IMG/VR virus record: IMGVR_UViG_3300008262_000055
Source: a virus
Taxonomy: Duplodnaviria > Caudoviricetes
Direction: 5' to 3' (one strand)
Length of the DNA: 64,000 nt
Position numbers and translations under genes: made by a program
Notes under the pieces: model-generated
The model's database searches: none
What the model was told of the DNA's origin: nothing
The model's input: the letters and a program-made list of their open reading frames with translations, nothing else
Shown: in pieces, positions 3,001 through 60,736 of the stretch
Position numbering within the stretch: the first letter of the stretch is position 1
Layout: each line of letters starts with the position of its first letter

Positions 3001-6000
3001 ATCAACCCGGTGCCGGCGATTGGGAAAAAATTGCGGAGGTTACTAATAGTATACTTCCGCCTTCATTAGCCTATGCTGATGATGGATCTACTATACAACA
3101 ACCCGCCAACGGCGATATAGAATTTTTGAATATCGGCAGCTCTTACGGAACTTTCTCAGCATTTAATAAAGACGGTTCTTTAATGGTAATATCAGCTCCA
3201 GCAAATGATACAGCTAGCTTTGAAAATTTTAAAGGTGTCTGGAGAAACAATATTAATTATCTAGCCGGTGATACTGTAAGACGCGGCACTTTTTATTATA
3301 ACTGTCTAGTAGATAATATTAATTCTATTCCAGAATTTTCTTCATCGACTTGGCAAGAAAACTCAGATTCCACATTAGGGAAAACTGGTTCAGTTTTTGT
3401 ATACGAAAAAACTTCTAATGAAACATTTACTCTTATTCAAACAATAGATAGCGATGAAATTGAATTAGAAGCAGGTGACGAGTTTGGTCACAAAGTAGTA
3501 TTGAATCAAGAAGGTACTCGATTATTTGTATCTGCCCCCAACTTTGATTATCTAGGCAAGGATCAAGGCAGTGTATTTGTTTTTGATAAAACAACCTCTG
3601 GATTTGTTTTAAAACAAAAATTAAATGGCCTAATTATGGAACCTGGAGAAAGGTTTGGGTCTAACGTATCTGTATCACCGGACGGTGTAACTTTAGCTAT
3701 TTCGGCAGAAGGGGCAGCAAGTTATAAGACCACTATATTTGACCGAGGCAATACTGCGTTTGATAGATTCGTAACTAGATTTAGAGACAGTCAAGGAAAA
3801 ACTGGTAAAGTCTATGTGTATACAAATTACACAGGATCTTTTGTATTGTCAGAAATTTTAGATCAGGGATTAAACACTGATGAAGATTTTGGTAGAGGGC
3901 TGTCTGTTTCTAATAATTCTATAATAGTTGGTAGCCCGTCATTTATATCTGAAGATCCTGCGTTCGAAGCTGTTAGGATTGGTAGACTTCAAAAATTTGA
4001 TAAAATACCTAATTCAAAACCTTGGTTCACTATTAAACAACAAGATGATCAAGTAAACATTGATTTGCTTAAGAATTTTTCTTTCTACGATAAATTTAAT
4101 AACGTAAAACTAGCAGATGTTGATATTTTAGATCCTGCTAAAGGAAAAATTTTATCCCTAGCTGATCAGTATATTGATTTTAAAACATCATTTGATCCTG
4201 CGGTTTATTCTGTTGGAACTGAAGAATCTGCTACTGATCCTAAACAATCATGGCAGTTAGATAAAGTTGGCACAATTTGGTGGGACTTATCTGCGGTTAA
4301 ATGGGCGTTATACGAACAAAACTCTTTATCTTTTAGAAACGGAAACTGGGGTTCTACAGCAGTTGGTAGTAGCGTAGATGTTTATGAATGGGTTGAAAGT
4401 TCTTACAGTCCCAGCGAGTGGAATGCTCTTACCGGAACTACTGAAGGATTTTCGTTAGGAATAACTGGAACAGCCCGATATGGTGATGATACTAATTACA
4501 GTGTCAAAACTAATTTTGATACTATTACAGGATTGCCATCTGGATCAATGTATTATTATTGGGTAAAAAATAAAACTACTGTACCAGAAGATTTAGATAG
4601 AGACCTCAGTGCTAATCAAATAGCCAATTACATTTCAGCTCCTTCATCTGCTGGGATACCTTATGCTTTATTAACCTCTAAAAACACATTTAGTTTAGTA
4701 AATTTCAACAGTGTAATAGACGACGATGAATTTTTAGTTAATATACAATTTTATGATCAAGAAAAAGAAATTAATCTAATTCACAATGAGTATCAACTAT
4801 TAGCTGAAGGCACAATACAAGTACCTAATTTAGAATTAGAAAATAAATGGATTGACAGTCTAATAGGTGAGGACATTGCTGGACAAGCTGTTCCAGATAG
4901 AAAATTGCCAGTAAAATTAAGATACGGCATTTCTTCTAGACCAAGACAGTCAATGTTCATAAACAGGAATAAGGCTGTTAGTTTAATAATTGATTATGTT
5001 AACGATATTCTAAAGAAAAAACCATTTGCTGAGATAATAGACTATGGCAATCTTAATTTACAAGATGAAAAACCTGCGTTAACAAAAAATCTCTATGACC
5101 AAGTATTAGAAACTGAAAAAGAATTAAGATTTATTGCTACTTCTAAAATTAAAACAGCAAAACTTAAAGCAAACATAGTAAATGGTCACATTAACACTGT
5201 AGATGTTATTGATGGCGGGTACGGATATAAAACCGCACCTGATATAAAAATTCTTGGTTCGGGGTCTGGGGCAAAATTTAAACCAACCCTAGATAATAGA
5301 GGATCTATAACTTCTGTAGAAGTAATAAATCAAGGAAAAAAATATCTAACTGCTAACTTAATAGTTAGACCATTTTCTGTTCTTGTTTCACAAGATTCTA
5401 GTGTAAACAATTTTTGGAGCATTTATTCTCTAGATGAAAAAAATAAAGAATTTTATAGAACAGCTACACAGTCCTTTGATACTAAAAACTTTTGGAAAAA
5501 GGTTGATTGGTGGCTACAACCATTTAATGAAAAATCTAAAATTAAAAAAACCATTGCTGGTCTTTATGAAGAAGCTAGTGTAGATCTAGCAATTGGTGAT
5601 TTATTAAGATTAGAAAATTATGGAATTGGTGGTTGGGCTGTTCTTGAAAGAGTCAATGCCACCGATGCTGACATAAGCGGAAAATATAAATTAGTAGGAA
5701 GAAAATTAGGTACTATTCAAATTATTAACGGTTTTTATAATACTGATGTTGAATCTACAGGATACGACTTAAGCCAAGCCTTTGATAGTAACAAATACGA
5801 TAGTTCGGCATCTATTGAATTTAGAAATATCTTAAAAGCTGTAAAAGAAGATATTTTTAAAGAAGACTTATCTGTAGAGTGGAATAAACTTTTCTTTGTA
5901 AGTTTACGATACGTATTTTCAGAACAACTGTATGTTGATTGGGCATTTAAAACTAGTTTCTTAAATGCTGTACATAACGTTGGTATTCTTGAACAAAAAT

Positions 6001-9000
6001 TGAATTATAAAAACGATAATCTTTCTAGTTATCAATCTTATATTGAAGAAGTAAAACCTTATAGAACTAAAATTAGAAACTATATCAGTAAGTATTTCAA
6101 TGTTGAATTAGCTAATCAATTAACTACTGATTTTGATTTACCACCCGTGTGGAATCCCGAAACTTCATCTATTGATGTTATTGGTAGTAATTCTAACCAA
6201 TTATCTCAATATCCGTGGAAGCTTTGGGTTGATAATAATCATTATTCTGTTGTAGATATTAAGATAGTAAGCCCGGGAAAAAATTATTCTTCTGTGCCTC
6301 AAATTATATTTGATGGTGGAAATGGAACAGGTGCTCAAGCCCAAGCATATATTTCAAACGGCAAAATTTCTAAGATTGTAGTTACTAATCCGGGTAGTGG
6401 TTATATTTCTGCTCCTACTGTTATGATCGTGGGTGGTGTAGGCAGCGAAATACAAAATGCTGCTCGTGCTGTGGCTATCATTGGGGATTCAAAAGTTAGA
6501 ACTTTTGATATGAAGATGAAGTTTGATAGAATTTCTAAAACTCCTAAGTTTAAATCTTACAGTTTCAACGAAAAGTTTATAGAAATTGAAACATTCAACG
6601 CTTCAGCAAAACAAACAACTTATAAATTAAAATATCCTTTATCCTTAGATAAATCTACAATCACAGTAACATTAGACGGATCTAGATTATTGTCTAGTCA
6701 ATATTCTGTAACATTAACTGAAGAATTAATTAATTCTAAAACAGAACTCATTGGAAGATTAATTCTTAATTCTGCTCCTGACGAGGCAAGTATAGTTGTT
6801 ATTGAATATCAGAAAAACAATGAAATACTAGATAGTCTAAACAGAATAGACAAATACTATAAACCTAAAGACGGACAGTTAGGTGTAGAAAAAATTAGAA
6901 TTGATGATACTGAAGGCAGCGAAGTAGTTTCTGATTATTCTCAGTTAATCACAGGTATTGATTACGGCGGCACTATTGTTCAAGGAGCCACTTTTGACAT
7001 TGGTGCGGGCTGGGATGCTCTACCTTGGTTTACTGAAGGATGGGATAGTTCCGAAGTTAACGAAACTGATTTCTACTTCCTAGTTGACGGAAGCACTACT
7101 TCGGTGTTATTACCCGAGGTTCCTAAACAAGGCATAGACATCAATATCTACGTTAAAAGAGTAACTACAGGAAAAACAGTAAGATTAGATTTTGAAACTT
7201 ATAATGAATATCAGTTAGGTGATAGTTCTTATAGTGGTGAAGTTCCGCCCGAAACAGCAATAATGAATACATTTGTTGGCGACGGTTCTACAGCATCAAT
7301 AATAATTCCTCAAGCAGCAAATTTAGAATCTGGAGATTTATTAATCTTCCGTCCATCTACCAGCGATGGCAGTTTAGTTATTGGCGGACGTAACAGCATA
7401 GACGCTTATATATCAGGCGGCTCTTTATCGGGAATGTCGGCATATTCGACTGCTACAGGAACCACTGCTGCTGAGATAGTACTTGACGGGGATAGACTTA
7501 TTAGTCCTGAACAAGTTCCTGCTCCTGAAGAAAATGTTCCAGGTCAGGTCTTGGAAGCATTGAGCATCAAGGTGTTTCATTCTTCAAGAAGCGGCTCTTC
7601 GGCTGTTAAATCTAAAATTTATATAGCTGACGGAAATACTGTTATTTTTGATATAGGACAAAAAATAATTGAAAAAACAAATATACTTGTATTTGTAGAT
7701 AAGTTTAAAAAGGATATCGATACAGAGTTTGTTATATTGTCAGAAAATAATTCTATTAGATTTATTGGAACAATACCTACTGCTGGTTCTGTTATTGAAA
7801 TTTTCACTATGGGAACAGGCGGCAAGGGAATATTAGACTATAGAGAATTTACCGGCACAGGCAACGATAGATATTTTATTACAGGGGCATCATTTAACGA
7901 AACGGTTACAGTATTTGCTAGTGTGGATAATCAGCCAGTTGATGTTGGATTTATTAATAGTGCTCAACTTACTGACACTCAAGATAAAACTCTTGTAGAA
8001 TTTGGAGTAGCACCTACCGAAGGTTCTAGAATAGTATTAATAGCTTTGAATACAGACCAACGCCCGTTAGTTAAAATTAATCATGTTGAAATACCCCTTG
8101 ACGAAGCAATTAAAGAATATGCTATACCGACTTTTAGCGGATTAGATATTGATCCAGCTGGCGACATGTTGGTAGAAATAAATGGTGAATTATTACGAAC
8201 TGTTGAAACAACCTATAAGATTTATGACGGAAACAATAATATACAAATAGGTGTTGATACTCCGAGAGATCCAGGAACAGTTATTTTTACTGATTTAAAA
8301 GTATTTGTTGATAATCAACTAAAAACATTTGGTATTGATTTTACATTTACGTCTGAAAACAACACAGTTACTTTTATTAAACCAATAACACTAGGAGCTG
8401 TTATACGTATAGAAGATTCGTCTGGTAGACAATATTCTATAGCAGATACAAATATTGTTTTAGAGCAGTTTACAGAATACTCAACTGGCGATACTTTATC
8501 TATAACTTGGTTTGAAAGATATACAGAATTAGATATTGTTAAAGATGAATTTAATGGCGGAAAAGTTAGTTTCTCTTTACAAAGACCTCTAATAGGAATT
8601 TCATATGTATGGGTATACAAGAACGGTATTCGACTAACGCCCGACATTGACTTTTATGTAGAATTACCAAGGGCTATATATCTAAGACAAGAAACAACTG
8701 AATCTGATATAATTGAAACTATTAGTTTTGGAGATCGTTTATACAAGCAGCCGTTATCTTTTGAAATATTCAAAGATGTGCTGAATAGAAATCATTACAA
8801 CAGATACAGAGTACTTGATCTAAAACTTGATAAAGATTTTAACTATTTTGATAATGAAATTACGCTTGTAGATGCTAGTCCGTTAGCAAGTCCATCAAAA
8901 GATCAGCCAGGTATAATAACTATACAGGGAGAAAAAATTCAGTACTACGAAAAAATTGGAAATGTGCTAAAAAATATTAGAAGAGGACTTTTTGGAACTG

Positions 9001-9515
9001 CTATTAGAGCAGTCTACCCAAAAAATACTCTTGTAGTTGATACTGGTTTCTTAGAGTTTATTCCTTATCAAGAAGCACAAGAAAAAGAAGATTTTATTTC
9101 GGACGGTACATCCCTATTAGTAGGGCCTTTAAATTTCCTACCAGGAAAAGCTAATATCAGTAACTGGTACAGAAATACTATTCCTACAAACTTTGGAAGA
9201 TGTGATCAGATTGAAGTTTTTGTGGGTGGAAGAAGACTTCGAAAAGATGCTACTAAAATTTATGATTCTACAGTAGGTGCTTATAGCCCTGCGGGAGATA
9301 TTGACATAGAAGCAGAATTTTCCGTAGACGGAATTAATGAAAACATAAGATTGACATACCCAGTTCCAGCAGGAACACGTATTACAGTTATCCGCAGACA
9401 AGGTAGATTGTGGTATGATAGGGGAGCATCGACTGCTACAACCGGCCAAGGACTCAGCTATAGTAATACCGCTATCGCTAAGTTCTTACAAAATAGCAGT
9501 ACAAAATTACCATAA
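3..9515 (+). CDS. Giant virion structural protein (baseplate/tail-associated), 5'-truncated by the window edge
   Basis: The frame is open from base 3 (SLVANIDYKINQIEDYYELGYQG), so the TTG at 57 is not the true start; >3150 aa. FG-GAP-like beta-propeller motifs (FGHKVVLN..LFVSAP, ERFGSNVSVSPDG, DFGRGLSVS..IIVGSP), short W/Y carbohydrate-binding-like modules (WNPSRTYQPGDVVKY, WRNNINYLAGDTVRR), VI.GG.GY repeats. Confidence 0.8.
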   Translation, partial: SLVANIDYKINQIEDYYELGYQGIDDTEKELARHSIGYQKRGYLDELAQDEVTQFRIYQGFIREKGTTNSITKIFDKLSSLDQDAIEMNEEWAFLMGTFGGSSQFKELELLLNQKDIRLNPQPIIIDSRGLSKSNYQNYILIGSNDFTIGGPEYTFPTKSYPVTESSAGYVYSGDVDFVVKTRTNLYALDITELKDGSKVWVTFDNPGWSVLRYTITDIIIGAVAVVDTTSVALECNKPHGLKVDDIIGINNIKYLEGFWRVKAVDPNTVIIEIAGFDEEPVIDQSSFATISIFETLRVGQYSDLISDRFAAYKEGTRVWLDDNGEGKWEVLEKKRIYKPVDVANYGVAFPTGSGKDVLFLEARNQIISSNPGQVVPAGEVIRESAVVVYGQSEEGLIPLQILNPNSNLRSIFLGSYGEVLASSKDGRWLMVGSPTVSYIPSNYKEVFSPTATYNPGDTVLFAGKLYQAQTTVVGDGSTINIDSQDWKPATEHLANPLGIGLYDVNQGYRQQGALEIFEYDEIFSQYQLRHTIISPRPAHGEKFSSTISLSKREGIEGTSGDVTLTVASIDSVGGILEVSAQGESGLEDARFSNVSGSDISLPGSNATFDVQKTNNTYSVLVRTGGSRYAIGDRIKITGSNLLGLTPFNDLIITVVAVTATGEIVGSATYNNIKGINSILPDEEATFRVTKSGNRYAVTRTSAGSGYSSRSIVRYSGRLYACIKDTRIDLGVWNPSRTYQPGDVVKYPANSTAYYTATGLNTGIVPTDTSKWENALPIFPTNQAYWEQVSGAVFAETAVEWSDLDLTGNKIRYTAGSIIVIPGSELGGEDGEHNITIRVNLVTANSAIDNFSFRGTASSGIIWSGTATAGERQFNDLQGEDVSDPGQGAIFDLVREDGRYNAIVNVAGTRYNVGDQIRILGSTLGGVEEAYYMVVGAPGSKDDMGRSYLYKFDGVSWKHLDDPNFVGIYSSTKNYPIGSRVWYNSDYWQALSNIPAVPNNQPGAGDWEKIAEVTNSILPPSLAYADDGSTIQQPANGDIEFLNIGSSYGTFSAFNKDGSLMVISAPANDTASFENFKGVWRNNINYLAGDTVRRGTFYYNCLVDNINSIPEFSSSTWQENSDSTLGKTGSVFVYEKTSNETFTLIQTIDSDEIELEAGDEFGHKVVLNQEGTRLFVSAPNFDYLGKDQGSVFVFDKTTSGFVLKQKLNGLIMEPGERFGSNVSVSPDGVTLAISAEGAASYKTTIFDRGNTAFDRFVTRFRDSQGKTGKVYVYTNYTGSFVLSEILDQGLNTDEDFGRGLSVSNNSIIVGSPSFISEDPAFEAVRIGRLQKFDKIPNSKPWFTIKQQDDQVNIDLLKNFSFYDKFNNVKLADVDILDPAKGKILSLADQYIDFKTSFDPAVYSVGTEESATDPKQSWQLDKVGTIWWDLSAVKWALYEQNSLSFRNGNWGSTAVGSSVDVYEWVESSYSPSEWNALTGTTEGFSLGITGTARYGDDTNYSVKTNFDTITGLPSGSMYYYWVKNKTTVPEDLDRDLSANQIANYISAPSSAGIPYALLTSKNTFSLVNFNSVIDDDEFLVNIQFYDQEKEINLIHNEYQLLAEGTIQVPNLELENKWIDSLIGEDIAGQAVPDRKLPVKLRYGISSRPRQSMFINRNKAVSLIIDYVNDILKKKPFAEIIDYGNLNLQDEKPALTKNLYDQVLETEKELRFIATSKIKTAKLKANIVNGHINTVDVIDGGYGYKTAPDIKILGSGSGAKFKPTLDNRGSITSVEVINQGKKYLTANLIVRPFSVLVSQDSSVNNFWSIYSLDEKNKEFYRTATQSFDTKNFWKKVDWWLQPFNEKSKIKKTIAGLYEEASVDLAIGDLLRLENYGIGGWAVLERVNATDADISGKYKLVGRKLGTIQIINGFYNTDVESTGYDLSQAFDSNKYDSSASIEFRNILKAVKEDIFKEDLSVEWNKLFFVSLRYVFSEQLYVDWAFKTSFLNAVHNVGILEQKLNYKNDNLSSYQSYIEEVKPYRTKIRNYISKYFNVELANQLTTDFDLPPVWNPETSSIDVIGSNSNQLSQYPWKLWVDNNHYSVVDIKIVSPGKNYSSVPQIIFDGGNGTGAQAQAYISNGKISKIVVTNPGSGYISAPTVMIVGGVGSEIQNAARAVAIIGDSKVRTFDMKMKFDRISKTPKFKSYSFNEKFIEIETFNASAKQTTYKLKYPLSLDKSTITVTLDGSRLLSSQYSVTLTEELINSKTELIGRLILNSAPDEASIVVIEYQKNNEILDSLNRIDKYYKPKDGQLGVEKIRIDDTEGSEVVSDYSQLITGIDYGGTIVQGATFDIGAGWDALPWFTEGWDSSEVNETDFYFLVDGSTTSVLLPEVPKQGIDINIYVKRVTTGKTVRLDFETYNEYQLGDSSYSGEVPPETAIMNTFVGDGSTASIIIPQAANLESGDLLIFRPSTSDGSLVIGGRNSIDAYISGGSLSGMSAYSTATGTTAAEIVLDGDRLISPEQVPAPEENVPGQVLEALSIKVFHSSRSGSSAVKSKIYIADGNTVIFDIGQKIIEKTNILVFVDKFKKDIDTEFVILSENNSIRFIGTIPTAGSVIEIFTMGTGGKGILDYREFTGTGNDRYFITGASFNETVTVFASVDNQPVDVGFINSAQLTDTQDKTLVEFGVAPTEGSRIVLIALNTDQRPLVKINHVEIPLDEAIKEYAIPTFSGLDIDPAGDMLVEINGELLRTVETTYKIYDGNNNIQIGVDTPRDPGTVIFTDLKVFVDNQLKTFGIDFTFTSENNTVTFIKPITLGAVIRIEDSSGRQYSIADTNIVLEQFTEYSTGDTLSITWFERYTELDIVKDEFNGGKVSFSLQRPLIGISYVWVYKNGIRLTPDIDFYVELPRAIYLRQETTESDIIETISFGDRLYKQPLSFEIFKDVLNRNHYNRYRVLDLKLDKDFNYFDNEITLVDASPLASPSKDQPGIITIQGEKIQYYEKIGNVLKNIRRGLFGTAIRAVYPKNTLVVDTGFLEFIPYQEAQEKEDFISDGTSLLVGPLNFLPGKANISNWYRNTIPTNFGRCDQIEVFVGGRRLRKDATKIYDSTVGAYSPAGDIDIEAEFSVDGINENIRLTYPVPAGTRITVIRRQGRLWYDRGASTATTGQGLSYSNTAIAKFLQNSSTKLP

Positions 9516-45025: not shown

Positions 45026-47692
45026 TCACTCAAAATCAAACAATTTGCTGAATGTATTATCCGACCTAGTTGAACTGATGTCCCATTCCAAAACACCAAT
45101 TAGGTTTTCTAACTTTTCATCGATAACTGTGGTTTCCATTTCACCGTCGGCGAAAGGCAAGTCTTTGAACCATTGAGGAAGTCTAAGCTCGTCAACAGGA
45201 TAAGCTACACTAGTATAGCCCATTGGATTATCTTTGATCTTACATACAATGACTTTAGCACCATCAGTGATACTCATGCTGTATTTGTCATCATTCATGC
45301 GTTTCAAAGTATTCCAATTTAAGCTAGCTCGAACATGTCCTGGCATGTTTGCTTTGCCTTGTTTCTTTTCTTTGGCCTGATACTCAGTGATATTGTTGGC
45401 TCGTTTAGGAGAACCTTTTTCCCAACCCGGCCGTGTTTTAAATTCAGTTCTAAAATTAGTAATGTATTCTAGGACTTCTTCTTTAGGCACACCGTTTAGG
45501 ACTTGTTCTAGCACTTGACTTAAGAAATCTTGAATAACAACTGGAGTGTCTGAACGTTTAAGATCTAGACCCATAGCCTTGATCTTTCCCGGTTTACCAT
45601 TTACATCTGCTCGTTTACCTTCTTTATCATAATAAAGAACAGCATAGCGTTTCTTAGTAATAAACAGACCTTTTGAAGCTACTAGTTCTCTTCCTGCTTT
45701 GATAACTTCGCCGCGAGTTTTAGGACAATGAAACTTATCTTGCATCATTTTAGGAAAGCTGGCATTTACCTCATCTGCTATTTGGTCGTAGAGTTGGACT
45801 ACAGTTTCTTTATTCCAAGGTAACTGACCGCTTTCAATTTCTTTTTTCAACACAGGGTAAGCGGAAAAATAACAAGAGTCTGTGTCGCCGTAGATTACAG
45901 CTTTTCCTTTGTAATCATATTCGCCTGTGGCTATTTCATTTATTTTACCAGCCATGTGTCTAACAATCTGTCTACCACTAAGTGTAGTACTTTGACCAAT
46001 CCTGTTATCAAAGAATCTACAGCCGGGATTAAGAATAGCACCATACAGGCTGTTTAGGTTAATCTTTTTAACTAATTGACGCTTGTCCCAGTATTCTTCT
46101 TCTACTTTATTTCCGGCAGCAATACACTCTTTGAGTTTGGCCTGCATCTCTTTACGTTCAGCGTACCAGCGTTTTAACAATCCGGGAATAACACCTTCTT
46201 TTTCGTAAGTGAAAATTGTACCGTTAGCAGAAATCATCCAAGGTTGATTACTTTCGAAGATAAGGTCATAGATTTGAGCACCACTTAGGGTATCGCTACC
46301 CCCACCTTCCCAATCAATTGTAATTTCTTTGGCAATATTTCTTTCCATCACGAATTCGTATTCAAGACTACCAAATATACCTTCCCAAGCAGCAGCAAAT
46401 GATTTTCCCTTGCCCATTTCCTGTTCAATGTAATTTTTTGTATAGTCTTGACGTAATTGTCCAACAATAGTCTCTGGACCCATATTCAAAGCACGAATCG
46501 CTGACGGATACAGCGAGTTAATATCAACTGAACCGATCCATTCGTGGATACCTTTCTTTGGATACGCAACATACGCACCCGCAGCCGGCTCTGAACCAGG
46601 TTCTCTTCGGATCCTATTAGGAACAATCATTCCTCTTCGATGAGCTTCGTTAATAATAGCCTGTTCAGTAACAGCTACAGCACCCATAGTTGTCTGTAAT
46701 AATACAGTACATTCATGTGCTAGTTTGTTAGCAAGATCTAAAAACTTTAGTTTTTTGTCTAATTTATCTAACAAGGCCGTGTCTTGTCTATTGTATTCAA
46801 TGAACTTACGGAAATCGTTGTTATACAGTTGATCCAACGTACCTTCGTAGACAGTCTTGTTCTCACCTATCTCCATTTCTCCAATAGCATCAAGTCTGTA
46901 TGTGTGGCGTTCTTCATAGGTATATTTGCGGTACAACTCGAGACTGTCCAGATGAACACGACCAACAAGGTCATAAGTAACAGCTTGCCTTCCATACTTC
47001 TCATACTCTCGTTTCTTTGGATATTGATCCCACAGACAGAATCTACGTGTGTCGTCTTTGCTTAATACCTTGGTTACACGATTAACAGTATAAGGAATAT
47101 CAAAGCCTTCTGAGTTCCATCCGCTTAATACATCGGCGTCTTGGATTAAATTTAGGAAGTTGTCTAACAGCTCTGCTTCTGTTTCAAAAATATAAGTATT
47201 AGGAAATTCTGCTACTGCTTGTTTAGCTTCTTCTACGGTGAGAGTTTTTGGAGGTATAGCTAAACATACTAGAGTATCTAACCATTGTAAGTGTACAGCA
47301 ATAGCAGTTATAGGCATAAACGCATCTTCTGGTGATGCGTAGCCACGCTCAGGATCAAAGTCTACTTCAATGTCAAAGAATGCTACATGTAATTTGGGGG
47401 AGTCTTGATTTAGATAATTGTCTTCTAGACATCGATAAATTGGATTTATATCCGATTCATACAGCTTCATACCGCTGTGTATTTTAAGTTCTTTATGTAG
47501 GTCTTTGAGATTTTTACAAGTTACACGGCTAAGTGGTTCGCCGTTAGTACTAGTATATTTGCCCTTAGGGTCTTGAAAGTAAAAGATATGTCGAGCAGGA
47601 TATTCTTTAAAATGTCTATGGCCATTATCGTCTCGTTCAACGATGTGGATAGTATCCTGATCGCGATTATAGAATGCGTCAACGTAACTCAA
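45026..47692 (-). CDS. polB: Family B DNA polymerase (gp43-like)
   Basis: Exo I DIEVD, Exo II NSEGFD, Exo III YNRQD; motif A DINSLYPS, motif B KINLNSLYG, motif C YGDTDS. TTG start with AGGAG. Confidence 0.97.
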   Translation of the reverse strand: MSYVDAFYNRDQDTIHIVERDDNGHRHFKEYPARHIFYFQDPKGKYTSTNGEPLSRVTCKNLKDLHKELKIHSGMKLYESDINPIYRCLEDNYLNQDSPKLHVAFFDIEVDFDPERGYASPEDAFMPITAIAVHLQWLDTLVCLAIPPKTLTVEEAKQAVAEFPNTYIFETEAELLDNFLNLIQDADVLSGWNSEGFDIPYTVNRVTKVLSKDDTRRFCLWDQYPKKREYEKYGRQAVTYDLVGRVHLDSLELYRKYTYEERHTYRLDAIGEMEIGENKTVYEGTLDQLYNNDFRKFIEYNRQDTALLDKLDKKLKFLDLANKLAHECTVLLQTTMGAVAVTEQAIINEAHRRGMIVPNRIRREPGSEPAAGAYVAYPKKGIHEWIGSVDINSLYPSAIRALNMGPETIVGQLRQDYTKNYIEQEMGKGKSFAAAWEGIFGSLEYEFVMERNIAKEITIDWEGGGSDTLSGAQIYDLIFESNQPWMISANGTIFTYEKEGVIPGLLKRWYAERKEMQAKLKECIAAGNKVEEEYWDKRQLVKKINLNSLYGAILNPGCRFFDNRIGQSTTLSGRQIVRHMAGKINEIATGEYDYKGKAVIYGDTDSCYFSAYPVLKKEIESGQLPWNKETVVQLYDQIADEVNASFPKMMQDKFHCPKTRGEVIKAGRELVASKGLFITKKRYAVLYYDKEGKRADVNGKPGKIKAMGLDLKRSDTPVVIQDFLSQVLEQVLNGVPKEEVLEYITNFRTEFKTRPGWEKGSPKRANNITEYQAKEKKQGKANMPGHVRASLNWNTLKRMNDDKYSMSITDGAKVIVCKIKDNPMGYTSVAYPVDELRLPQWFKDLPFADGEMETTVIDEKLENLIGVLEWDISSTRSDNTFSKLFDFE

Positions 47693-47760: not shown

Positions 47761-48051
47761 TTAAGTACTTAGCATCCTAACTAACCCTACTGAGTCAATT
47801 GTGACCAACAATAGGTAATTAGCCAGCATCCCAAAGGAACCACGACTATAAGCACACCCAGCGTATATAGCACAACCAGTAATCCAAATTGGGTAAAGTA
47901 TAATGAGAGGTGGTGTTGGAACGGTGAGTGCCATAGTGATAGAACAGCCAATGCTAATAGCCCAAGCAACGACCTCAAGACAAAAACGAACTCCATTGCT
48001 CGAATAGTCTTGTTTGATCCATGTAGCTGTTCCATTTAAAATATCTATCAT
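47761..48051 (-). CDS. Small multi-pass membrane protein
   Basis: 96 aa with three hydrophobic segments. Confidence 0.6.
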   Translation of the reverse strand: MIDILNGTATWIKQDYSSNGVRFCLEVVAWAISIGCSITMALTVPTPPLIILYPIWITGCAIYAGCAYSRGSFGMLANYLLLVTIDSVGLVRMLST

Positions 48052-54470: not shown

Positions 54471-55109
54471 TTAGTCCTGTATAATCAGGTTATAAACTGT
54501 GCCAACCACGTTAGAATTCTTTAATTTCAGCATTAGCAGCGTCTTTTCGCTATCTACAAGAATATATCTACGATCCCAGTTCCAGTGAGTAGTTATAAAC
54601 CACTGCGATACAGCGTCAGAAATAGAAACTCCATTAACGCTTTTTAACCATTTAATATACTGCGGTTTTTCACTAACATCCATTTTATGAGGTTTCATGT
54701 ATACTCGCATAGTAAACTTATCTTGAGGATACTTTTTTACAAGAATGGTATGTTTGTCAGATAGTTGCTGCTCGGGTTTTTGTGCGAATCGTATTTTTTC
54801 GGGTAACAGGCATAGCATTGTGTTAAAAAATGCTTCGTCGCTAGTATAAACATCAATGATATTTGTTTCTATTCTAATATCATAGGAATTTCCAGGAACT
54901 TTTTTTAATAAGCCAGTGAGATGTACTAAATCATCCTTGCTATTGATAATTTTGCGATTATAGGTACTGTTAGGCACAAGTTTTTCAATAGTATTCTCAA
55001 TACCGTCAAAAGACTTATGCCTTATGAATGAACAGCCGTCAATGTTATAGCTGACTTTGTAAAGCCATTTACCGTAGAATAACTTTTTAGTTGGCTTGTA
55101 TTGTATCAT
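54471..55109 (-). CDS. Hypothetical protein
   Basis: 212 aa, overlapping the clpA end. Confidence 0.6.
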   Translation of the reverse strand: MIQYKPTKKLFYGKWLYKVSYNIDGCSFIRHKSFDGIENTIEKLVPNSTYNRKIINSKDDLVHLTGLLKKVPGNSYDIRIETNIIDVYTSDEAFFNTMLCLLPEKIRFAQKPEQQLSDKHTILVKKYPQDKFTMRVYMKPHKMDVSEKPQYIKWLKSVNGVSISDAVSQWFITTHWNWDRRYILVDSEKTLLMLKLKNSNVVGTVYNLIIQD

Positions 55110-57429
55110 CTTTTATCAATGGAGCACCGTCTAGAATCCTTCTATGGTGCTTAAAAGCACGTTTTTCGTACTTGTCTAGCTCGTCCTCTTGTAATTTTAC
55201 AACAAACTCTAGTTTATTGTCAACCACATTAACAAATACCTTGCCTCCATTTTTCAATTCACCGAATAGTATTTTTCTACTAACAGGTGATTTGATTTCG
55301 TTATCAATTAGTCTGTTTAGAGGTCTAGCACCTAATTTGACATTATAACCATTCTTAGCTAGCCAATTTCTAGAATCATCTGTGAGTACAATTTCTACAC
55401 CCTTGTCTTTGATCTGATGATTTAATTCACGCATAAACTTGTCTACGATAACTTTGACAGTATCCATTGATAATCCGCCAAATTTAACAATAGCATCTAA
55501 ACGATTACGGAACTCAGGAGCAAAGAATTTCTTAACCGCTTTATCATCTTCGCCGTCTTTGTTTAAATCGCCAAACCCAATAGTGTTTCTTTCATTGTCC
55601 GCCGCACCTAAGTTTGATGTCATAATAAGAATGCTGTTACGGCCATCTGCTTGTTTACCATTACTGCCTGTTACAAAACCATTATCCATGAACTGTAACA
55701 AGATATTAGAAACATCTGGATGAGCTTTTTCAATTTCATCAAGCAATAAAACACAGTTTGGTGTTTCTTGAAGTTTAGTAATCAGTTGTCCGGCATTATC
55801 TTCAAAACCTACATAGCCCGGAGGAGCACCGATCAGTCTTGCTACACTGTGTTTTTCTTGATATTCGCTCATATCAAATCTTACCAATGGCATTGTCATC
55901 TTTTCAGACAATGCTTTAGCAGTTTCGGTTTTGCCACAACCAGTTGGACCCACAAACAAGAAACATCCAATGGGCTTATTGGGTACTTTCATACCTGCTT
56001 GTGCTACAAAGATTTTATCGAGCAAGTTAGAGATTGCTGATTCCTGACCAAACACAGAATTTTTTAAATTGGCTTCTAAGTCTGACAGATTTTTAGATTC
56101 CTTTTCGCTAACTGCTTCAAACGGCATATTGGTCATTTTACTGACTTCAAACATAACCTGTTCAATGTCAACAATACTTACAGCAGTTTCGACATCATTA
56201 TCTTTGATTTTATATCTAGCCGCAGAGCAATCGATAATGTCAATGGCCTTATCTGGTAATTTCTTATCGGGCATGTATTTGATACTCATTTTTACAGCCT
56301 GTTCGATAGCAGCATCGGTAATTTTAACACCGTGAAACTGCTCGTAATACTTGCGAATGCCTTTGATAATCTTAACTGACAGTTCCGGTGTAGGCTCATC
56401 AACTGTAACACGCTGGAATCGACGCATCAAAGCACGATCCTTTTCAAAGTGTTTACGATATTCTTCCCATGTAGTTGACGCAATGACTTTCATTGTACCT
56501 TTGGTCAACATTGGCTTGAGGATGTTAGCCAAATCGTTAGCTGACCCATTAGCGGCACCAGCACCATTCATCATATGTGCTTCGTCGATGAACAGAATAA
56601 TTTTTCCTTTTTTCTCCAAGGCTGTTAGAACTGCTTTAATTCGTTCTTCAAAGTCGCCTCTATATTTGCTGCCTGCTAGCAACGCAGAGATATCTAATGT
56701 ATAGACACTATGGTCTAATATAAATTTAGGAACTTTCTTTTCAAATATTTTACGAGCTAGCCCTTCTGCTATAGCAGTTTTACCAACTCCGGGTTCGCCA
56801 ACTAATAAAACGTTGCTCTTTGTCCTACGTGCTAGAATAAGTTGTATTTTTTCTAACTCGTCATCTCTGCCTATTACTGGATCAATCTTACGTTGTTTTG
56901 CCAAGAGGCTTAGATTACTACAGAATTGATTGAGAATTTTATCCAATTGGTTATGATTTAGTCTAGGATTTTGTTCGTCTACTTCGATATCGTTTTCAAA
57001 TTTGGATTGGAAGTATTCGATTAGTTTTTCTTTAGTAATACCAGCTTTGGTCATATAATAAAAACTAAAGCTCTTTCTTTCTCCGATAATGGCAATTAAC
57101 ACATCTTCTACTTCAATAACTTGTCGCCCACTGAATAAGGCCTGTGTAAATGCTCTGTTTAGCACACGCTCAACTGAAGTAGTTCTTTTTGGTTTGTGTT
57201 TATCAGTACCAGTTCTAATATCATCTAATTTTGTTTTAAGAAAATGATCTAAATTAACTTTGAGGTACTCGCTAGCAAATCCGGATTTCTGTAAACCATT
57301 AAATGTTTCCTCATCTAACATAATAGAAAAGGTTAAATGTTCAATAGTAATGTATTCGTGTTCTAGTCTTTGAGCAACATCGATCGCTTTTTCAAAGACT
57401 GCTTGGAGTTTTTTACTTGGTTCTAGCAT
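55087..57429 (-). CDS. clpA: ATP-dependent Clp protease ATPase subunit
   Basis: Clp N-domain; two AAA+ modules (GEPGVGKT, GPTGCGKT); IGF ClpP-docking loop; no ClpB M-domain. Confidence 0.93.
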   Translation of the reverse strand: MLEPSKKLQAVFEKAIDVAQRLEHEYITIEHLTFSIMLDEETFNGLQKSGFASEYLKVNLDHFLKTKLDDIRTGTDKHKPKRTTSVERVLNRAFTQALFSGRQVIEVEDVLIAIIGERKSFSFYYMTKAGITKEKLIEYFQSKFENDIEVDEQNPRLNHNQLDKILNQFCSNLSLLAKQRKIDPVIGRDDELEKIQLILARRTKSNVLLVGEPGVGKTAIAEGLARKIFEKKVPKFILDHSVYTLDISALLAGSKYRGDFEERIKAVLTALEKKGKIILFIDEAHMMNGAGAANGSANDLANILKPMLTKGTMKVIASTTWEEYRKHFEKDRALMRRFQRVTVDEPTPELSVKIIKGIRKYYEQFHGVKITDAAIEQAVKMSIKYMPDKKLPDKAIDIIDCSAARYKIKDNDVETAVSIVDIEQVMFEVSKMTNMPFEAVSEKESKNLSDLEANLKNSVFGQESAISNLLDKIFVAQAGMKVPNKPIGCFLFVGPTGCGKTETAKALSEKMTMPLVRFDMSEYQEKHSVARLIGAPPGYVGFEDNAGQLITKLQETPNCVLLLDEIEKAHPDVSNILLQFMDNGFVTGSNGKQADGRNSILIMTSNLGAADNERNTIGFGDLNKDGEDDKAVKKFFAPEFRNRLDAIVKFGGLSMDTVKVIVDKFMRELNHQIKDKGVEIVLTDDSRNWLAKNGYNVKLGARPLNRLIDNEIKSPVSRKILFGELKNGGKVFVNVVDNKLEFVVKLQEDELDKYEKRAFKHHRRILDGAPLIKDDTIQAN

Positions 57430-57432
57430 TGA

Positions 57433-57924
57433 TTATTTTCTCTTATTAATTTTTTTAATAGCTAATTGTAGCTTCATCTGAGATACTCTGTCAACAAAAC
57501 ATATTCCCTTTAGGTGATCAAACTCGTGTTGAAAACATCTAGCAATTAGCCCGTCCATCTCAGCAGTGACAATGTCTCCTTTGCTATTTTGAAACTCTGC
57601 GATAATAGCTTTGGGTCGTTTAATAGTTAACCATAAATCAGGATAACTCAAACATCCTTCTTTAAAAAGGTCTGTGTCTTTGCTTACTTCTAAAATTTTA
57701 GGATTAAACACAGCCATAGGTTCGTATCCTGAAATATTTTTACTACCTATCACAAAAACATTTTTTGTAAATCCTATTTGATTAGCAGCTAGCCCTATGC
57801 CGTTATTATCTAACATAAAGTCTATCATTTGTTTTTCTAGATCCTCTGCGTTTTTATCAACAGAAAAATCCCAGTCCAAGCTAACCTGTGTTAACGCATC
57901 ATGTGGGCCGAGTTCAAATGCCAT
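57433..57924 (-). CDS. def: Peptide deformylase
   Basis: GIGLAANQ, EGCLS, HEFDH. Confidence 0.95.
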   Translation of the reverse strand: MAFELGPHDALTQVSLDWDFSVDKNAEDLEKQMIDFMLDNNGIGLAANQIGFTKNVFVIGSKNISGYEPMAVFNPKILEVSKDTDLFKEGCLSYPDLWLTIKRPKAIIAEFQNSKGDIVTAEMDGLIARCFQHEFDHLKGICFVDRVSQMKLQLAIKKINKRK

Positions 57925-58723
57925 TGCGTAAATCCTCTATAAGTTTTTTTGCCTGCTCAGAAAGTATCTTTGGTATGTTAACTTTAACTTTAATTAAAAT
58001 TGCTCCACGCACTCCTGATCGAGGGTGTGGTAGGCCTTCTCCTTTGCAGCTAAACACTGTCCCAGGTTGTGTTCCAGCTGGTACTGTTATGCTTAGAGTT
58101 TTCTTTTCTAAAGTTTCAAAAGTTACTTCAGTTCCTAGTAGTGCTTCCCAAACATCTATATCTTTTTCTAACAATAGATTAGAGTGCTCTCTACGCCATA
58201 TTGGATGAGGTATTACTCTAACAGTTACAATAAGGTCGCCGGGGTGAAGTTTGGGAATACTGTGATCTCCCATTCCTGGATATCTGATCTGTACATTATC
58301 TTCAATACCTGCTGGTATGTTTATAGAAACTAGTTTTTTCTGACCGTTTCTAAAGCTGATCTCAGCATCTATGGTTTTACCAGTCAACACATCTTCTAGA
58401 GTAATTGTGACATTGGCACCTATGTTAGTATTTCTTTGTTGCTGTTGGAAACCAAATCCAAAAGGACTACCTCCACCAAAAAATGTTGTGAAGATATCAT
58501 CGCCCATATTACTGGTATTAAACTGGTATTGATTAGGATTGTCGTATTGAAATCTTTTTTCATCGTCGCTGAGTGTACGATATGCTTCTTCAATTTCTTT
58601 AAATTTATTAGCGTCACCGCCGCGGTCAGGATGATGCTTCATAGCCAAGCTACGATATGCTTTTTTAATTTCGTCCTGTGTAGCAGATTTTCCTACACCT
58701 AAAGTTTTATAATAATCTATCAT
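57914..58723 (-). CDS. dnaJ: Class II J-domain protein (DnaJ/CbpA-like)
   Basis: J-domain with HPD, G/F linker, DnaJ C-domain, no Zn finger. Confidence 0.9.
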   Translation of the reverse strand: MIDYYKTLGVGKSATQDEIKKAYRSLAMKHHPDRGGDANKFKEIEEAYRTLSDDEKRFQYDNPNQYQFNTSNMGDDIFTTFFGGGSPFGFGFQQQQRNTNIGANVTITLEDVLTGKTIDAEISFRNGQKKLVSINIPAGIEDNVQIRYPGMGDHSIPKLHPGDLIVTVRVIPHPIWRREHSNLLLEKDIDVWEALLGTEVTFETLEKKTLSITVPAGTQPGTVFSCKGEGLPHPRSGVRGAILIKVKVNIPKILSEQAKKLIEDLRNGI

Positions 58724-58728
58724 AGAGT

Positions 58729-58764
58729 AAAAAAGGGTATAGTAGTAATTATACTATACCCTTT
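58729..58764 (-). terminator. Rho-independent terminator of the lysis block
   Basis: 13-bp stem AAAGGGTATAGTA/TACTATACCCTTT, 7-nt loop, T-run on the - strand. Confidence 0.75.
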
Positions 58765-58776
58765 GATAAAAGTCAA
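58748..58776 (-). promoter_or_regulatory. sigma70 promoter for dnaJ-def-clpA
   Basis: TTGACT-N17-TATAAT; the -10 sits at the stem/loop boundary of the hairpin. Confidence 0.7.
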
Positions 58777-58784
58777 AAACAGAA

Positions 58785-59012
58785 TTATTTCTTTGCGTCA
58801 GGTACTTTGGTGCCTTCATGCTTTTGATGTTTCTTAACTGTTTTACACTCTTGTTTTGGTTTTTTGGTTTTTGGATCAATAACAGGTTTACCGTCTTTAC
58901 CCTGTACATCGACGCAAACTTTAGCAGTTTCTGCCTCTTTCTTTTCTTCAGCGGCATACACTGGACCAGCAGCTAAAAAGCCTGCCATTAACATTGTTAA
59001 AAATAATTTCAT
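58785..59012 (-). CDS. Small exported basic peptide (signal peptide, 2 Cys)
   Basis: MKLFLTMLMAGFLAAGPVYA|AEEKK signal sequence; GGAG SD; last gene of the lysis block. Confidence 0.65.
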   Translation of the reverse strand: MKLFLTMLMAGFLAAGPVYAAEEKKEAETAKVCVDVQGKDGKPVIDPKTKKPKQECKTVKKHQKHEGTKVPDAKK

Positions 59013-59031: not shown

Positions 59032-59349
59032 TTATTTTCTGCTCATCCAGGCTGTTACACCCATATAAGCACCTACTACACCGGCTTGAGCAATATAGAA
59101 CATTCCTAAAAGATCAGCCAAGGCCTTTACACGTTCAACTTCAATTATTGGTAAAAATAAAAATCCGCTGAAGATGATCATTGAAACCATTGCAACCCAT
59201 GCCATTCTTCTATGAGCATCTGCCTTTTCTTCTCGAAGCTCAATTTCTAAAATTTCATTAGCGTTGTTGATTTCTTCGTCACTAACAGTACCATCACTGT
59301 CCATATCGTATCTATTATATCTTGAATTTTTTTCTAGTATTTTTGCCAT
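59032..59349 (-). CDS. Holin-like 2-TM membrane protein with N-terminal EF-hand loop
   Basis: Start MAKILEK at 59349 (AGGAG); DMDSDGTVSDEE; two hydrophobic helices; basic C-terminus; directly downstream of the spanin and endolysin genes. Confidence 0.6.
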   Translation of the reverse strand: MAKILEKNSRYNRYDMDSDGTVSDEEINNANEILEIELREEKADAHRRMAWVAMVSMIIFSGFLFLPIIEVERVKALADLLGMFYIAQAGVVGAYMGVTAWMSRK

Positions 59350-59368
59350 GTGCCGCTCCTGCAAAAAC

Positions 59369-59641
59369 TTATTTTACTTCGTCAAAGATTTTTTTCTGTG
59401 ACTCGTACCATAGTATCCAATTATCAACTTTTAACTTACACTCGTGATATTGAGTATAATTTTCTGTAACAACTGTAAGTACTTTGCTCAAAGATTCTGT
59501 GCCCTTATCTACTTTTTTAAGATTTGGACACGCTGCTATTAGTTCAGCAGGTACATCTGGAAAGTTACGTTTTACTGGAGCAGTAGTAGTGAAGCAACCA
59601 GTTAATAGAAAAGCAGGTATTAATAAGATTAAGAATTTCAT
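59369..59641 (-). CDS. o-spanin-like lipoprotein
   Basis: Lipobox LLTG|C, Pro-rich segment, further Cys; overlaps the i-spanin end. Confidence 0.75.
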   Translation of the reverse strand: MKFLILLIPAFLLTGCFTTTAPVKRNFPDVPAELIAACPNLKKVDKGTESLSKVLTVVTENYTQYHECKLKVDNWILWYESQKKIFDEVK

Positions 59642-60105
59642 TTCTTTTCTCCTTCAGGTACACCTGCAGCACTTTCGTTAAGAATATCTAAAGCTTCTTG
59701 CGGAACCTTACATTGTGCGTCAATAATTTTTTCTTTTTCTACTATAACTTCCTTGATACGATCTTGGAACACTTTAATTTCCTTGACTTTGGTTATAATT
59801 TTTTCTTTGATAATCGTATTAGTTTCTTTAGATTTTTGTTCTGCTATAGCTACTTTAGATTCTAATTCTCTAACACGTTCACGCCATACCATTTCGGTAC
59901 CGTAACTACCAAATACATAAGCTCCTACAGTTAATATTAGAACTCCTAATATTTCAGCAGGAAATTTGTACTGACTTATTATTGGAAGCCATTTTACTAT
60001 CTTACTGAGAACATATAGTCCTACACCTATGCCTATCAGTGCGTAGGACACCCAGAGAAAGAAGCTGTCTGGTATAAAGCTCAGCATCCACCCTGTTAGC
60101 CACAT
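59638..60105 (-). CDS. i-spanin-like protein
   Basis: N-terminal TM segments followed by a periplasmic coiled coil and a Cys; lies between the endolysin and the lipoprotein. Confidence 0.7.
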   Translation of the reverse strand: MWLTGWMLSFIPDSFFLWVSYALIGIGVGLYVLSKIVKWLPIISQYKFPAEILGVLILTVGAYVFGSYGTEMVWRERVRELESKVAIAEQKSKETNTIIKEKIITKVKEIKVFQDRIKEVIVEKEKIIDAQCKVPQEALDILNESAAGVPEGEKK

Positions 60106-60106
60106 A

Positions 60107-60736
60107 TTAGTGAACTCCTAACACATGCTTGGCATGTTCGAAGTGCTTGATACGATCGTCTAATCCAATAGTACCACCGTTAATACGTTTAGTCAACGTT
60201 AGAATATCACCTTTGTCTGCCCATTGATTGAGATTGTTTTGTTCCCAGAAGAAACAAGCTGACTGGACAGCACCCTCAAAAGTTCCTAGATATTCTGGAA
60301 CATCCTCAACTTTCATGTCTAAGCTGGCAGCAAAAAATGTATAATTGTTTTTGCCAGTTAACTGAATAAGACCGCGACCGCAATAACGCCAGCCATCACC
60401 AGATGCTTCATCGCCGTTGCCCATGCGACTAGCATAAACTCTGTTGGCAATTTTTTCTTGTTTATTAGCATACTCGGCAGCAATAGCATCATCTGGAAAA
60501 TACTTAGGAAATACTTTACGCAGGCTAGGTGCTTTGTAATTTAAATTTTCTTTTAAGAATTTAAATCCACCACTCTCGTGAGCACACTGAGCAATAAATG
60601 CCGCTACACGCTCTTTGGTATTAATTTCATACTCTGGAAGAATTTCACATAAAGCATGATGCCAATTATCCAAGTAAGGATTATTACCGATCATTTCTTT
60701 TAGATGTGCTTTTGTAAATTCAAAATCAAAACTCAT
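60107..60736 (-). CDS. GH19 chitinase-like endolysin
   Basis: AAFIAQCAHESGGF..ENLNY..GRGLIQLTGKNNY..KRINGG. Confidence 0.92.
   Translation of the reverse strand: MSFDFEFTKAHLKEMIGNNPYLDNWHHALCEILPEYEINTKERVAAFIAQCAHESGGFKFLKENLNYKAPSLRKVFPKYFPDDAIAAEYANKQEKIANRVYASRMGNGDEASGDGWRYCGRGLIQLTGKNNYTFFAASLDMKVEDVPEYLGTFEGAVQSACFFWEQNNLNQWADKGDILTLTKRINGGTIGLDDRIKHFEHAKHVLGVH

Follow-up and report, generated by a model that had tools for sequence, protein, structure and literature searches.

Why should a small membrane protein encoded in a phage lysis operon carry an EF-hand? The question is raised by a gene at 59032..59349 (minus strand, stop codon included) in a stretch of 64,000 nucleotides from IMG/VR virus record IMGVR_UViG_3300008262_000055 (Duplodnaviria; Caudoviricetes). 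This whole stretch is referred to below as the window. The product of the gene, P0001, has 105 amino acids (N-terminus MAKILEKN in the translated open reading frame, ORF) and consists of a single EF-hand-type loop followed by a helix and two transmembrane (TM) segments. A sequence-only reading of the window had seen in it a membrane protein in holin position that might time lysis in response to Ca2+. The best explanation we can offer is similar: P0001 appears to be a holin-type lysis protein of family phrog_27150 whose triggering is modulated by Ca2+, a composite reading that stands, in our estimate, at about an even chance.

Residues 15-27 of P0001 fit the PROSITE pattern PS00018 at all 13 positions, which confirms the canonical EF-hand loop that the sequence-only reading had placed at residues 15-26. 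The loop, together with hydrophobic residue 27, is encoded at 59269..59307 on the minus strand. Translating the entire 64-kb window in six frames yields no further PS00018 match, and in 200,000 shuffles of P0001 such a match arose only 87 times. As in calmodulin and Entamoeba CaBP1 (PDB 1jfj), the 12-residue loop has D1, D3, D5, G6, a hydrophobic residue at position 8, S9 and E12, and P0001 shares with canonical EF-hand proteins the aromatic residue just before the loop and the exiting helix. It differs from them in having a single loop per chain, with no second EF-hand in that chain, a short entering helix, and an exiting helix that turns into a TM helix.

The loop is not peculiar to P0001. 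The protein matches phrog_27150 (E 3.5e-9), a group annotated 'unknown function', and the same profile is matched by 112 of 119 family representatives with a best E of 1.8e-16. Grouped at 90% identity, the homologues of P0001 form more than 1000 clusters; at 50% identity (E up to 0.001) they form 594. These clusters come from marine and freshwater phages, and the isolates include phages of Roseobacter, Limnohabitans and Sinorhizobium. Pfam contains no entry for the family, and its PHROG is without an assigned function; a feature search of the protein atlas with P0001 retrieved no clusters other than the unnamed viral ones that make up the family.

Among 151 cluster representatives, the ligand columns of the loop belong to the best conserved of the family. 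Aspartate occupies position 1 in 122 of 135 representatives and position 5 in 122 of 138, position 3 is D or N in 127 of 135, and position 6 is G in 116 of 137. Position 8 is V, I or L (126 of 143), position 9 mainly S, T, D or N, and position 12 is E in 111 and D in 22 of 142 representatives (E/D in 133). The non-ligand positions 2, 4 and 7 vary freely. Judged from the alignment, this conservation pattern is that expected of a working EF-hand. The family profile also matches solved Ca2+-bound EF-hands, namely Entamoeba CaBP1/EhCaBP1 and calmodulins (E 8e-6 to 1e-4), over both the loop and the aromatic residue preceding it. In Pfam searches 67 of 119 family members match EF-hand_1 (E below 0.1) and 61 match EF-hand_5. 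These similarities make it probable that P0001 binds Ca2+.

How is the loop connected to the membrane? The AlphaFold2 (AF2) model of P0001, computed from an alignment of 119 sequences, has a mean predicted local distance difference test score (pLDDT) of 92.3. It consists of a short helix (residues 10-14, the whole of the entering helix), the loop, a clear and unbroken helix (24-64) and, beyond a short turn, two further helices (71-76 and 78-104). In this model the exiting helix of the EF-hand and TM1 are thus one and the same helix. The charged exiting helix that joins the loop to TM1 (residues 27-48, 59206..59271, minus strand) carries conserved K42 and Q46. By hydropathy, TM1 comprises residues ~49-69 (59143..59205, minus strand; Kyte-Doolittle peak 2.29 in a 19-residue window) and TM2 residues ~78-102 (59044..59118, minus strand), in keeping with the helix and two TM segments that had been predicted to follow the loop. 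W51, T61 and P67 are conserved in TM1. TM2 has a small-residue face formed by A89, G93 and G97; among the representatives, A, S, G or T occur at position 89 and G, A, S or C at position 93, and G97 is found in 131 of 142. TM1 opens with a MAW motif; of the 83 counts listed for the distance between E12 of the loop and this motif, 72 give 22 residues.

Over residues 1-71 the AF2 model resembles predicted eukaryotic EF-hand proteins (TM-score about 0.55). Foldseek of the model against PDB returned nothing at E below 0.001, and VIA-align of the model against 48,161 chains found only generic helical hairpins (best Z 7.5). An NCBIfam search retrieved the EF-hand effector XopAW and otherwise scattered membrane-protein noise. 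The prediction of a homodimer with two Ca2+ reached a score of 0.04, the mark being 0.42; as no verdict was returned, the result weighs neither way.

Further, P0001 displays several traits of holins. It is a small TM protein (two TM domains) located in an endolysin/spanin operon. In all 119 family members examined, the 15 residues before TM1 and the C-tail, taken together, contain more K/R than the turn between the helices (medians 4 before TM1, 2 in the C-tail and 1 in the turn). The positive-inside rule thus predicts that the N-terminus with its EF-hand and the C-terminus are cytoplasmic, which corresponds to the N-in/C-in topology of class II holins. The C-tail of P0001 consists of SRK only; for the family the median tail has 4 residues and 2 K/R, and long basic tails also occur. 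The best non-EF Pfam match of P0001 is to PF07332 (Phage_holin_3_6), whose model positions 20-84 align with residues 32-101, that is with the juxtamembrane helix and both TM helices. Matches to PF07332 at E below 0.1 were found in 23 of 119 members, all of them sub-threshold, with a best E of 1.1e-4. We lean slightly towards P0001 being itself the hole-former.

The gene lies in a minus-strand run of genes extending from about 61994 to 58785. The run begins with two virion structural genes (phrog_12928 and phrog_13138) and continues with a GH19 endolysin, an i-spanin-like protein, an o-spanin, P0001 and a protein of 75 amino acids. The order in which P0001 follows endolysin, i-spanin and o-spanin is thus as the sequence-only reading described it. 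The GH19-type endolysin (60107..60736, minus strand) matches phrog_181 (E 4.6e-77) and Pfam Glyco_hydro_19 (E 4.4e-5); its N-terminus is charged and not hydrophobic, so that the earlier statement that it lacks a signal or signal-arrest-release (SAR) sequence holds. The o-spanin is a lipoprotein of 90 amino acids with lipobox LTGC (59369..59641, minus strand; Pfam LysC/Rz1-like E 1.6e-5, phrog_456 Rz-like spanin E 4.7e-7). The i-spanin-like protein (155 amino acids, 59638..60105, minus strand) has weak Rz-like and phrog_4952 matches and consists of hydrophobic segments 15-33 and 48-66, a K-rich loop between them and a subsequent coiled coil. The claim that P0001 is the only holin candidate in the cassette therefore stands in part: P0001 is a two-TM gene accompanying the endolysin, and the i-spanin-like protein with its two hydrophobic segments counts as another candidate, though a weaker one. 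The cassette of the syntenic relative L008 has an ordinary i-spanin with one TM segment, and no other multi-TM protein is encoded in it. The i-spanin-like protein of the window may be a spanin that has one more membrane helix at its N-terminus.

An intrinsic-terminator-like hairpin with a 13-bp stem and a T run (58732..58764, minus strand), detected by terminator scan, closes the lysis operon before dnaJ. Since this hairpin precedes the chaperone genes described below, P0001 is part of the lysis operon and not of the chaperone block.

Does the association with lysis genes extend to other members of the family? IMG/VR was scanned with an alignment of 26 closer sequences. Gene neighbourhoods were surveyed at 76 distinct IMG/VR viral loci within a span of five genes; neighbouring ORFs were clustered and recurrent clusters annotated. 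Within this span, GH24 and GH108 lysozymes, M15 peptidases, a GH19 enzyme and a recurrent Peptidase_C93-like protein were found. In isolates, the homologue of Roseobacter phage CRP-9 has its stop one base before the start of an M15-like endolysin, after which a lipoprotein with C-terminal TM segment (u-spanin architecture) is encoded. In Roseobacter phage CRP-1 the stop of the homologue overlaps the endolysin start. In Limnohabitans phage DC31 an i-spanin-like gene separates the homologue from an L-Ala-D-Glu peptidase gene, which is the second gene downstream. Altogether the family adjoins five recognised wall-hydrolase classes (GH19, GH24, GH108, M15 and Hydrolase_2) in addition to the Peptidase_C93-like neighbour. 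The large terminase gene is often located just downstream, which is a usual place of lysis cassettes. That a single membrane protein accompanies wall hydrolases of many unrelated kinds is classically the mark of a holin-type gene. That P0001 is a lysis-cassette membrane protein is the part of our reading in which we have high confidence.

Whole-genome searches for holins were performed in relatives, namely CRP-9, DC31, phiM12, DLP_6 and the 269-kb relative behind locus L023. No match to PF11351 or PF11031 (T4 holin T) was detected genome-wide in CRP-9, DC31, phiM12 and the L023 relative. The DLP_6 genome gave no PF11031 match; the PF11351 search was not made there. In these five genomes, as far as such profile searches tell, the family member is the best or only holin candidate. 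The homologue gene is not discussed in the CRP-9 paper.

Two recurrent neighbours are of interest in their own right. A tail-anchored protein of ~150 amino acids, phrog_32327 (unknown function), with N-terminal coiled coil and single C-terminal TM segment, occurs within five genes in 35 of the 76 loci (examples are L004 3355-3813, L037 3519-3995 and L076 3041-3481) and probably works together with the family member in one lysis system. The Peptidase_C93-like protein (transglutaminase-like cysteine protease, ~141 amino acids) lies directly beside the family member and just before the terminase gene (L017 4052-4474, L095 2601-3026). It may represent an uncommon class of endolysin in pelagic phages.

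On the basis of these data, the following mechanism is proposed. P0001 would be made late from the structural/lysis operon and would form a helical hairpin in the inner membrane, its two ends lying in the cytoplasm as the charge distribution suggests. It would then accumulate and oligomerise through TM2. Gene context suggests that it is most likely involved directly in producing the membrane lesion through which the GH19 endolysin, lacking a signal sequence, gains access to the wall. The single EF-hand-type loop would be exposed at the cytoplasmic N-terminus, its exiting helix running into TM1 at the fixed 22-residue spacing. Energised bacteria hold free cytoplasmic Ca2+ far below outside levels, and so the loop should stay empty until the membrane leaks or the proton-motive force drops. 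Entry of Ca2+ would order the loop, and the rigid 22-residue helix would pass this change to the packing or oligomerisation of TM1. A Ca2+-filled loop would sharpen or advance concerted triggering as a positive feedback; the opposite sign, inhibition of triggering by Ca2+, may apply instead. That Ca2+ tunes lysis timing via P0001 is the tentative part of this proposal, and we consider it possible, with the balance somewhat against it. Extended to the family, the idea is that widespread aquatic phages use cytoplasmic Ca2+ as a lysis trigger or feedback, the EF-hand of the holin sensing Ca2+ entry and bringing about either concerted holes or lysis inhibition. This broader version is doubtful; the Ca2+ may come in through the first membrane lesions, through loss of proton-motive force or on superinfection.

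Several observations weigh against the reading of P0001 as a Ca2+-modulated holin. P0001 is encoded at the distal end of the cassette and not in the usual upstream position of holins. Its match to PF07332 is weak (16.3 bits, E 0.01, gathering cut-off 28.4). The EF-hand_5 score of 13.3 bits likewise does not reach the gathering cut-off of 25.9; single short EF-hands often score below Pfam cut-offs. The predicted topology has the positive-inside rule as its sole basis. The loop, whose presence in homologues beside lysins had been put forward by the sequence-only reading as a check, is conserved in hundreds of clusters and is unrecognisable in 38 of 154 representatives (~25%), some of them fragments and several full length. 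It follows from these loop-less members that Ca2+ can at most modulate the core function and cannot be essential to it. The remaining objections concern companion holins, gene position in T4-like phages and conservation of the TM helices, and each of them is best considered along with the alternative it favours.

A PF11351-type holin (GTA_holin_3TM, phrog_3427) or a weaker relative is encoded within five genes in 32 of the 76 viral loci, so the family member is not needed as the sole holin there and may act as a second holin or regulator. It could thus be argued that P0001 is an antiholin or membrane-bound lysis regulator paired with another holin, with the EF-hand as regulatory input. The partner, of PF11351 type in many phages and an unrecognised one here, would be held inactive or activated by P0001. 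The typical gene order (EF-TM protein, tail-anchored protein, 3TM holin, one small unassigned gene, lysozyme) is in line with such an arrangement, and the frequent phrog_32327 neighbour points to a membrane system of several components. There is also a resemblance to known holin regulators in the combination of a membrane protein with a regulatory domain in the cytoplasm. Pairs of a two-TM-domain and a one-TM-domain holin-like protein are described for F1-cluster mycobacteriophages (PMC13056207). PF11351-type proteins resemble P0001 in being small inner-membrane proteins that occur in the same cassettes in many marine phages. Comparison of the family alignment with 30 PF11351-type neighbours by hhalign yielded a probability of 2.7%, that is, the two are unrelated and do not constitute a paralogous holin/antiholin pair. 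The regulator explanation is further at odds with the genomes described above in which PF11351 or T4 holin T matches are lacking, and with CRP-9 and CRP-1, where the homologue occupies exactly the expected place of a holin and, in CRP-9, no other multi-TM lysis-type protein is found beside it. We regard a role as regulator of another holin as unlikely. More remote is a function outside lysis, as anchor or helper in baseplate or tail assembly, superinfection-exclusion protein or ion channel, with proximity to endolysin genes reflecting the late-operon neighbourhood. In the T4-like phages phiM12 (gp121, L003 3830-4249) and DLP_6 (AAY80_234, L090 2351-2797), which infect different hosts, the homologue has the same place between baseplate genes 26/51 and a tape-measure-like or GH108-bearing tail protein, and in phiM12 it is far from the endolysin gene. 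The P0001 operon itself begins with two virion structural genes. In addition, the TM helices of the family are, judging from the alignment, far more conserved than is usual for holins, which generally show less TM sequence conservation; this fits binding to a conserved partner. Set against this, five unrelated wall-hydrolase classes and the C93-like neighbour, met in myo-, sipho- and podo-type contexts, are hard to explain without a role in lysis. T4-like phages scatter lysis genes among their late genes anyway, and the tail protein downstream of the DLP_6 homologue (720 amino acids) itself carries a GH108 wall-hydrolase domain at 508-582. A non-lysis function is accordingly judged improbable.

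The third alternative concerns the loop and not the protein. The loop might be a constitutive structural metal site for Ca2+ or Mg2+, or a dimerisation element, which stabilises the N-terminal domain and senses nothing; timing would then depend, as it does for classical holins, on the accumulation of the protein. Bacterial loops of the DxDxDG and dockerin types usually have a structural role, and 9 of 119 family members match Dockerin_1. The aspartate found at position 12 in a minority of representatives favours Mg2+. The entering helix is not universal, with no more than 6 residues preceding the loop in 19 of 113 relatives (~17%). EF-less members are found in the same gene contexts, one by a Hydrolase_2 gene and one by a Peptidase_C93 gene, the context of a third being uninformative; the DLP_6 homologue lacks the loop, too. 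A small bridge links residues 3-4 to residues 21-22 of the loop in the AF2 monomer, so the site may be self-contained. If the N-in orientation holds, on the other hand, the loop faces sub-micromolar free Ca2+ and a purely structural Ca2+ site would be empty. Moreover, the fixed spacing and the continuous helix into TM1 look like a coupling device. A purely structural loop seems rather doubtful to us, and the reading of P0001 as a holin-type protein modulated by Ca2+ is retained.

With this reading in mind, P0001 can be compared with known systems. Class II holins such as S21 68 of phage 21 are alike in small size, two TM segments, predicted N-in/C-in topology and location in a lysis cassette. 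The small-residue spacing in TM2 of P0001 resembles the glycine zipper of the phage 21 pinholin. P0001 differs from the S21 68 pinholin in its strongly hydrophobic, not SAR-like TM1 and in its GH19 partner, which is free of SAR sequence. It also has a predicted cytoplasmic N-terminal domain of 48 residues with the EF-hand loop. A pinholin, which has a weakly hydrophobic SAR-type first TM domain and a SAR endolysin as partner, agrees with P0001 on neither point. Because the GH19 endolysin has no SAR sequence, a pinhole would not suffice for its release. PF07332, the putative actinobacterial Holin-X family (holin superfamily III), is alike over the juxtamembrane helix and both TM segments; it is a putative holin family only and has no EF-hand.

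The antiholins lambda S107 and T4 RI and RIII set the time of holin triggering in response to a signal, namely membrane potential or superinfection (PMC11413866, PMC8385771). These proteins are, like P0001, lysis-cassette proteins, and differ from it in showing no likeness of sequence or architecture, RI being periplasmic and RIII soluble. None of them is known to use a metal-binding domain. The literature yielded no paper on an EF-hand holin or on control of a holin by Ca2+, in agreement with the remark in the sequence-only reading that such control is not an established mechanism.

As for the gene itself, the Shine-Dalgarno sequence AGGAG is found at 59356..59360 (minus strand), 6 nt upstream of the ATG at 59349. 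A dual-start motif was considered and rejected, as the upstream TTG at 59364 overlaps this Shine-Dalgarno sequence and has none of its own. DNA nearly identical to the window occurs in lake and freshwater metagenomes of many studies. One 203-nt contig of a freshwater metatranscriptome covers 59263-59465 with 3 differences; DNA carry-over is possible, so this contig does not establish transcription.

The surroundings of the gene deserve a few remarks. The last gene of the operon (58785..59012, minus strand) encodes a Lys-rich, two-Cys protein of 75 amino acids with a signal peptide. It has no family match in Pfam and PHROG searches, is found in the same position in relatives L008 and L023, and is a possible periplasmic lysis accessory. 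The terminator-like hairpin that follows it overlaps an 11/12 match to a sigma-70-like promoter (58732-58776, minus strand), marking a transcription-unit boundary between the lysis operon and dnaJ. Beyond it, genes for DnaJ (269 amino acids), peptide deformylase (163 amino acids) and a ClpA/ClpB-like AAA+ chaperone (780 amino acids) occupy 55087-58723 on the minus strand, a block kept in L008 and L023. Far from the lysis cassette, a 96-amino-acid ORF with three predicted TM helices (47761-48051, minus strand) lies just upstream of an 888-amino-acid ORF (45026-47692). A single ORF of more than 3150 amino acids at 3-9515 (plus strand), which extends past the start of the window, encodes a giant protein.

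Classical models explain the timing of holins by the accumulation of protein and by membrane potential, and no holin is known to carry a ligand-binding sensor domain. If the broader, family-wide version of the mechanism is true, it would provide the first ligand-gated holin and would give Ca2+ signalling its first defined role in phage lysis timing. If P0001 turned out to regulate lysis without being a holin, it would nevertheless represent a new type of lysis control component. A canonical Ca2+ loop rigidly joined to a TM helix offers a concrete handle for testing cheaply whether ions govern host bursting, and P0001 could yield a small ion-switchable membrane-permeabilising module for laboratory use. 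Since the family is abundant in ocean and lake viromes, the mechanism would bear on the timing of lysis in nature.

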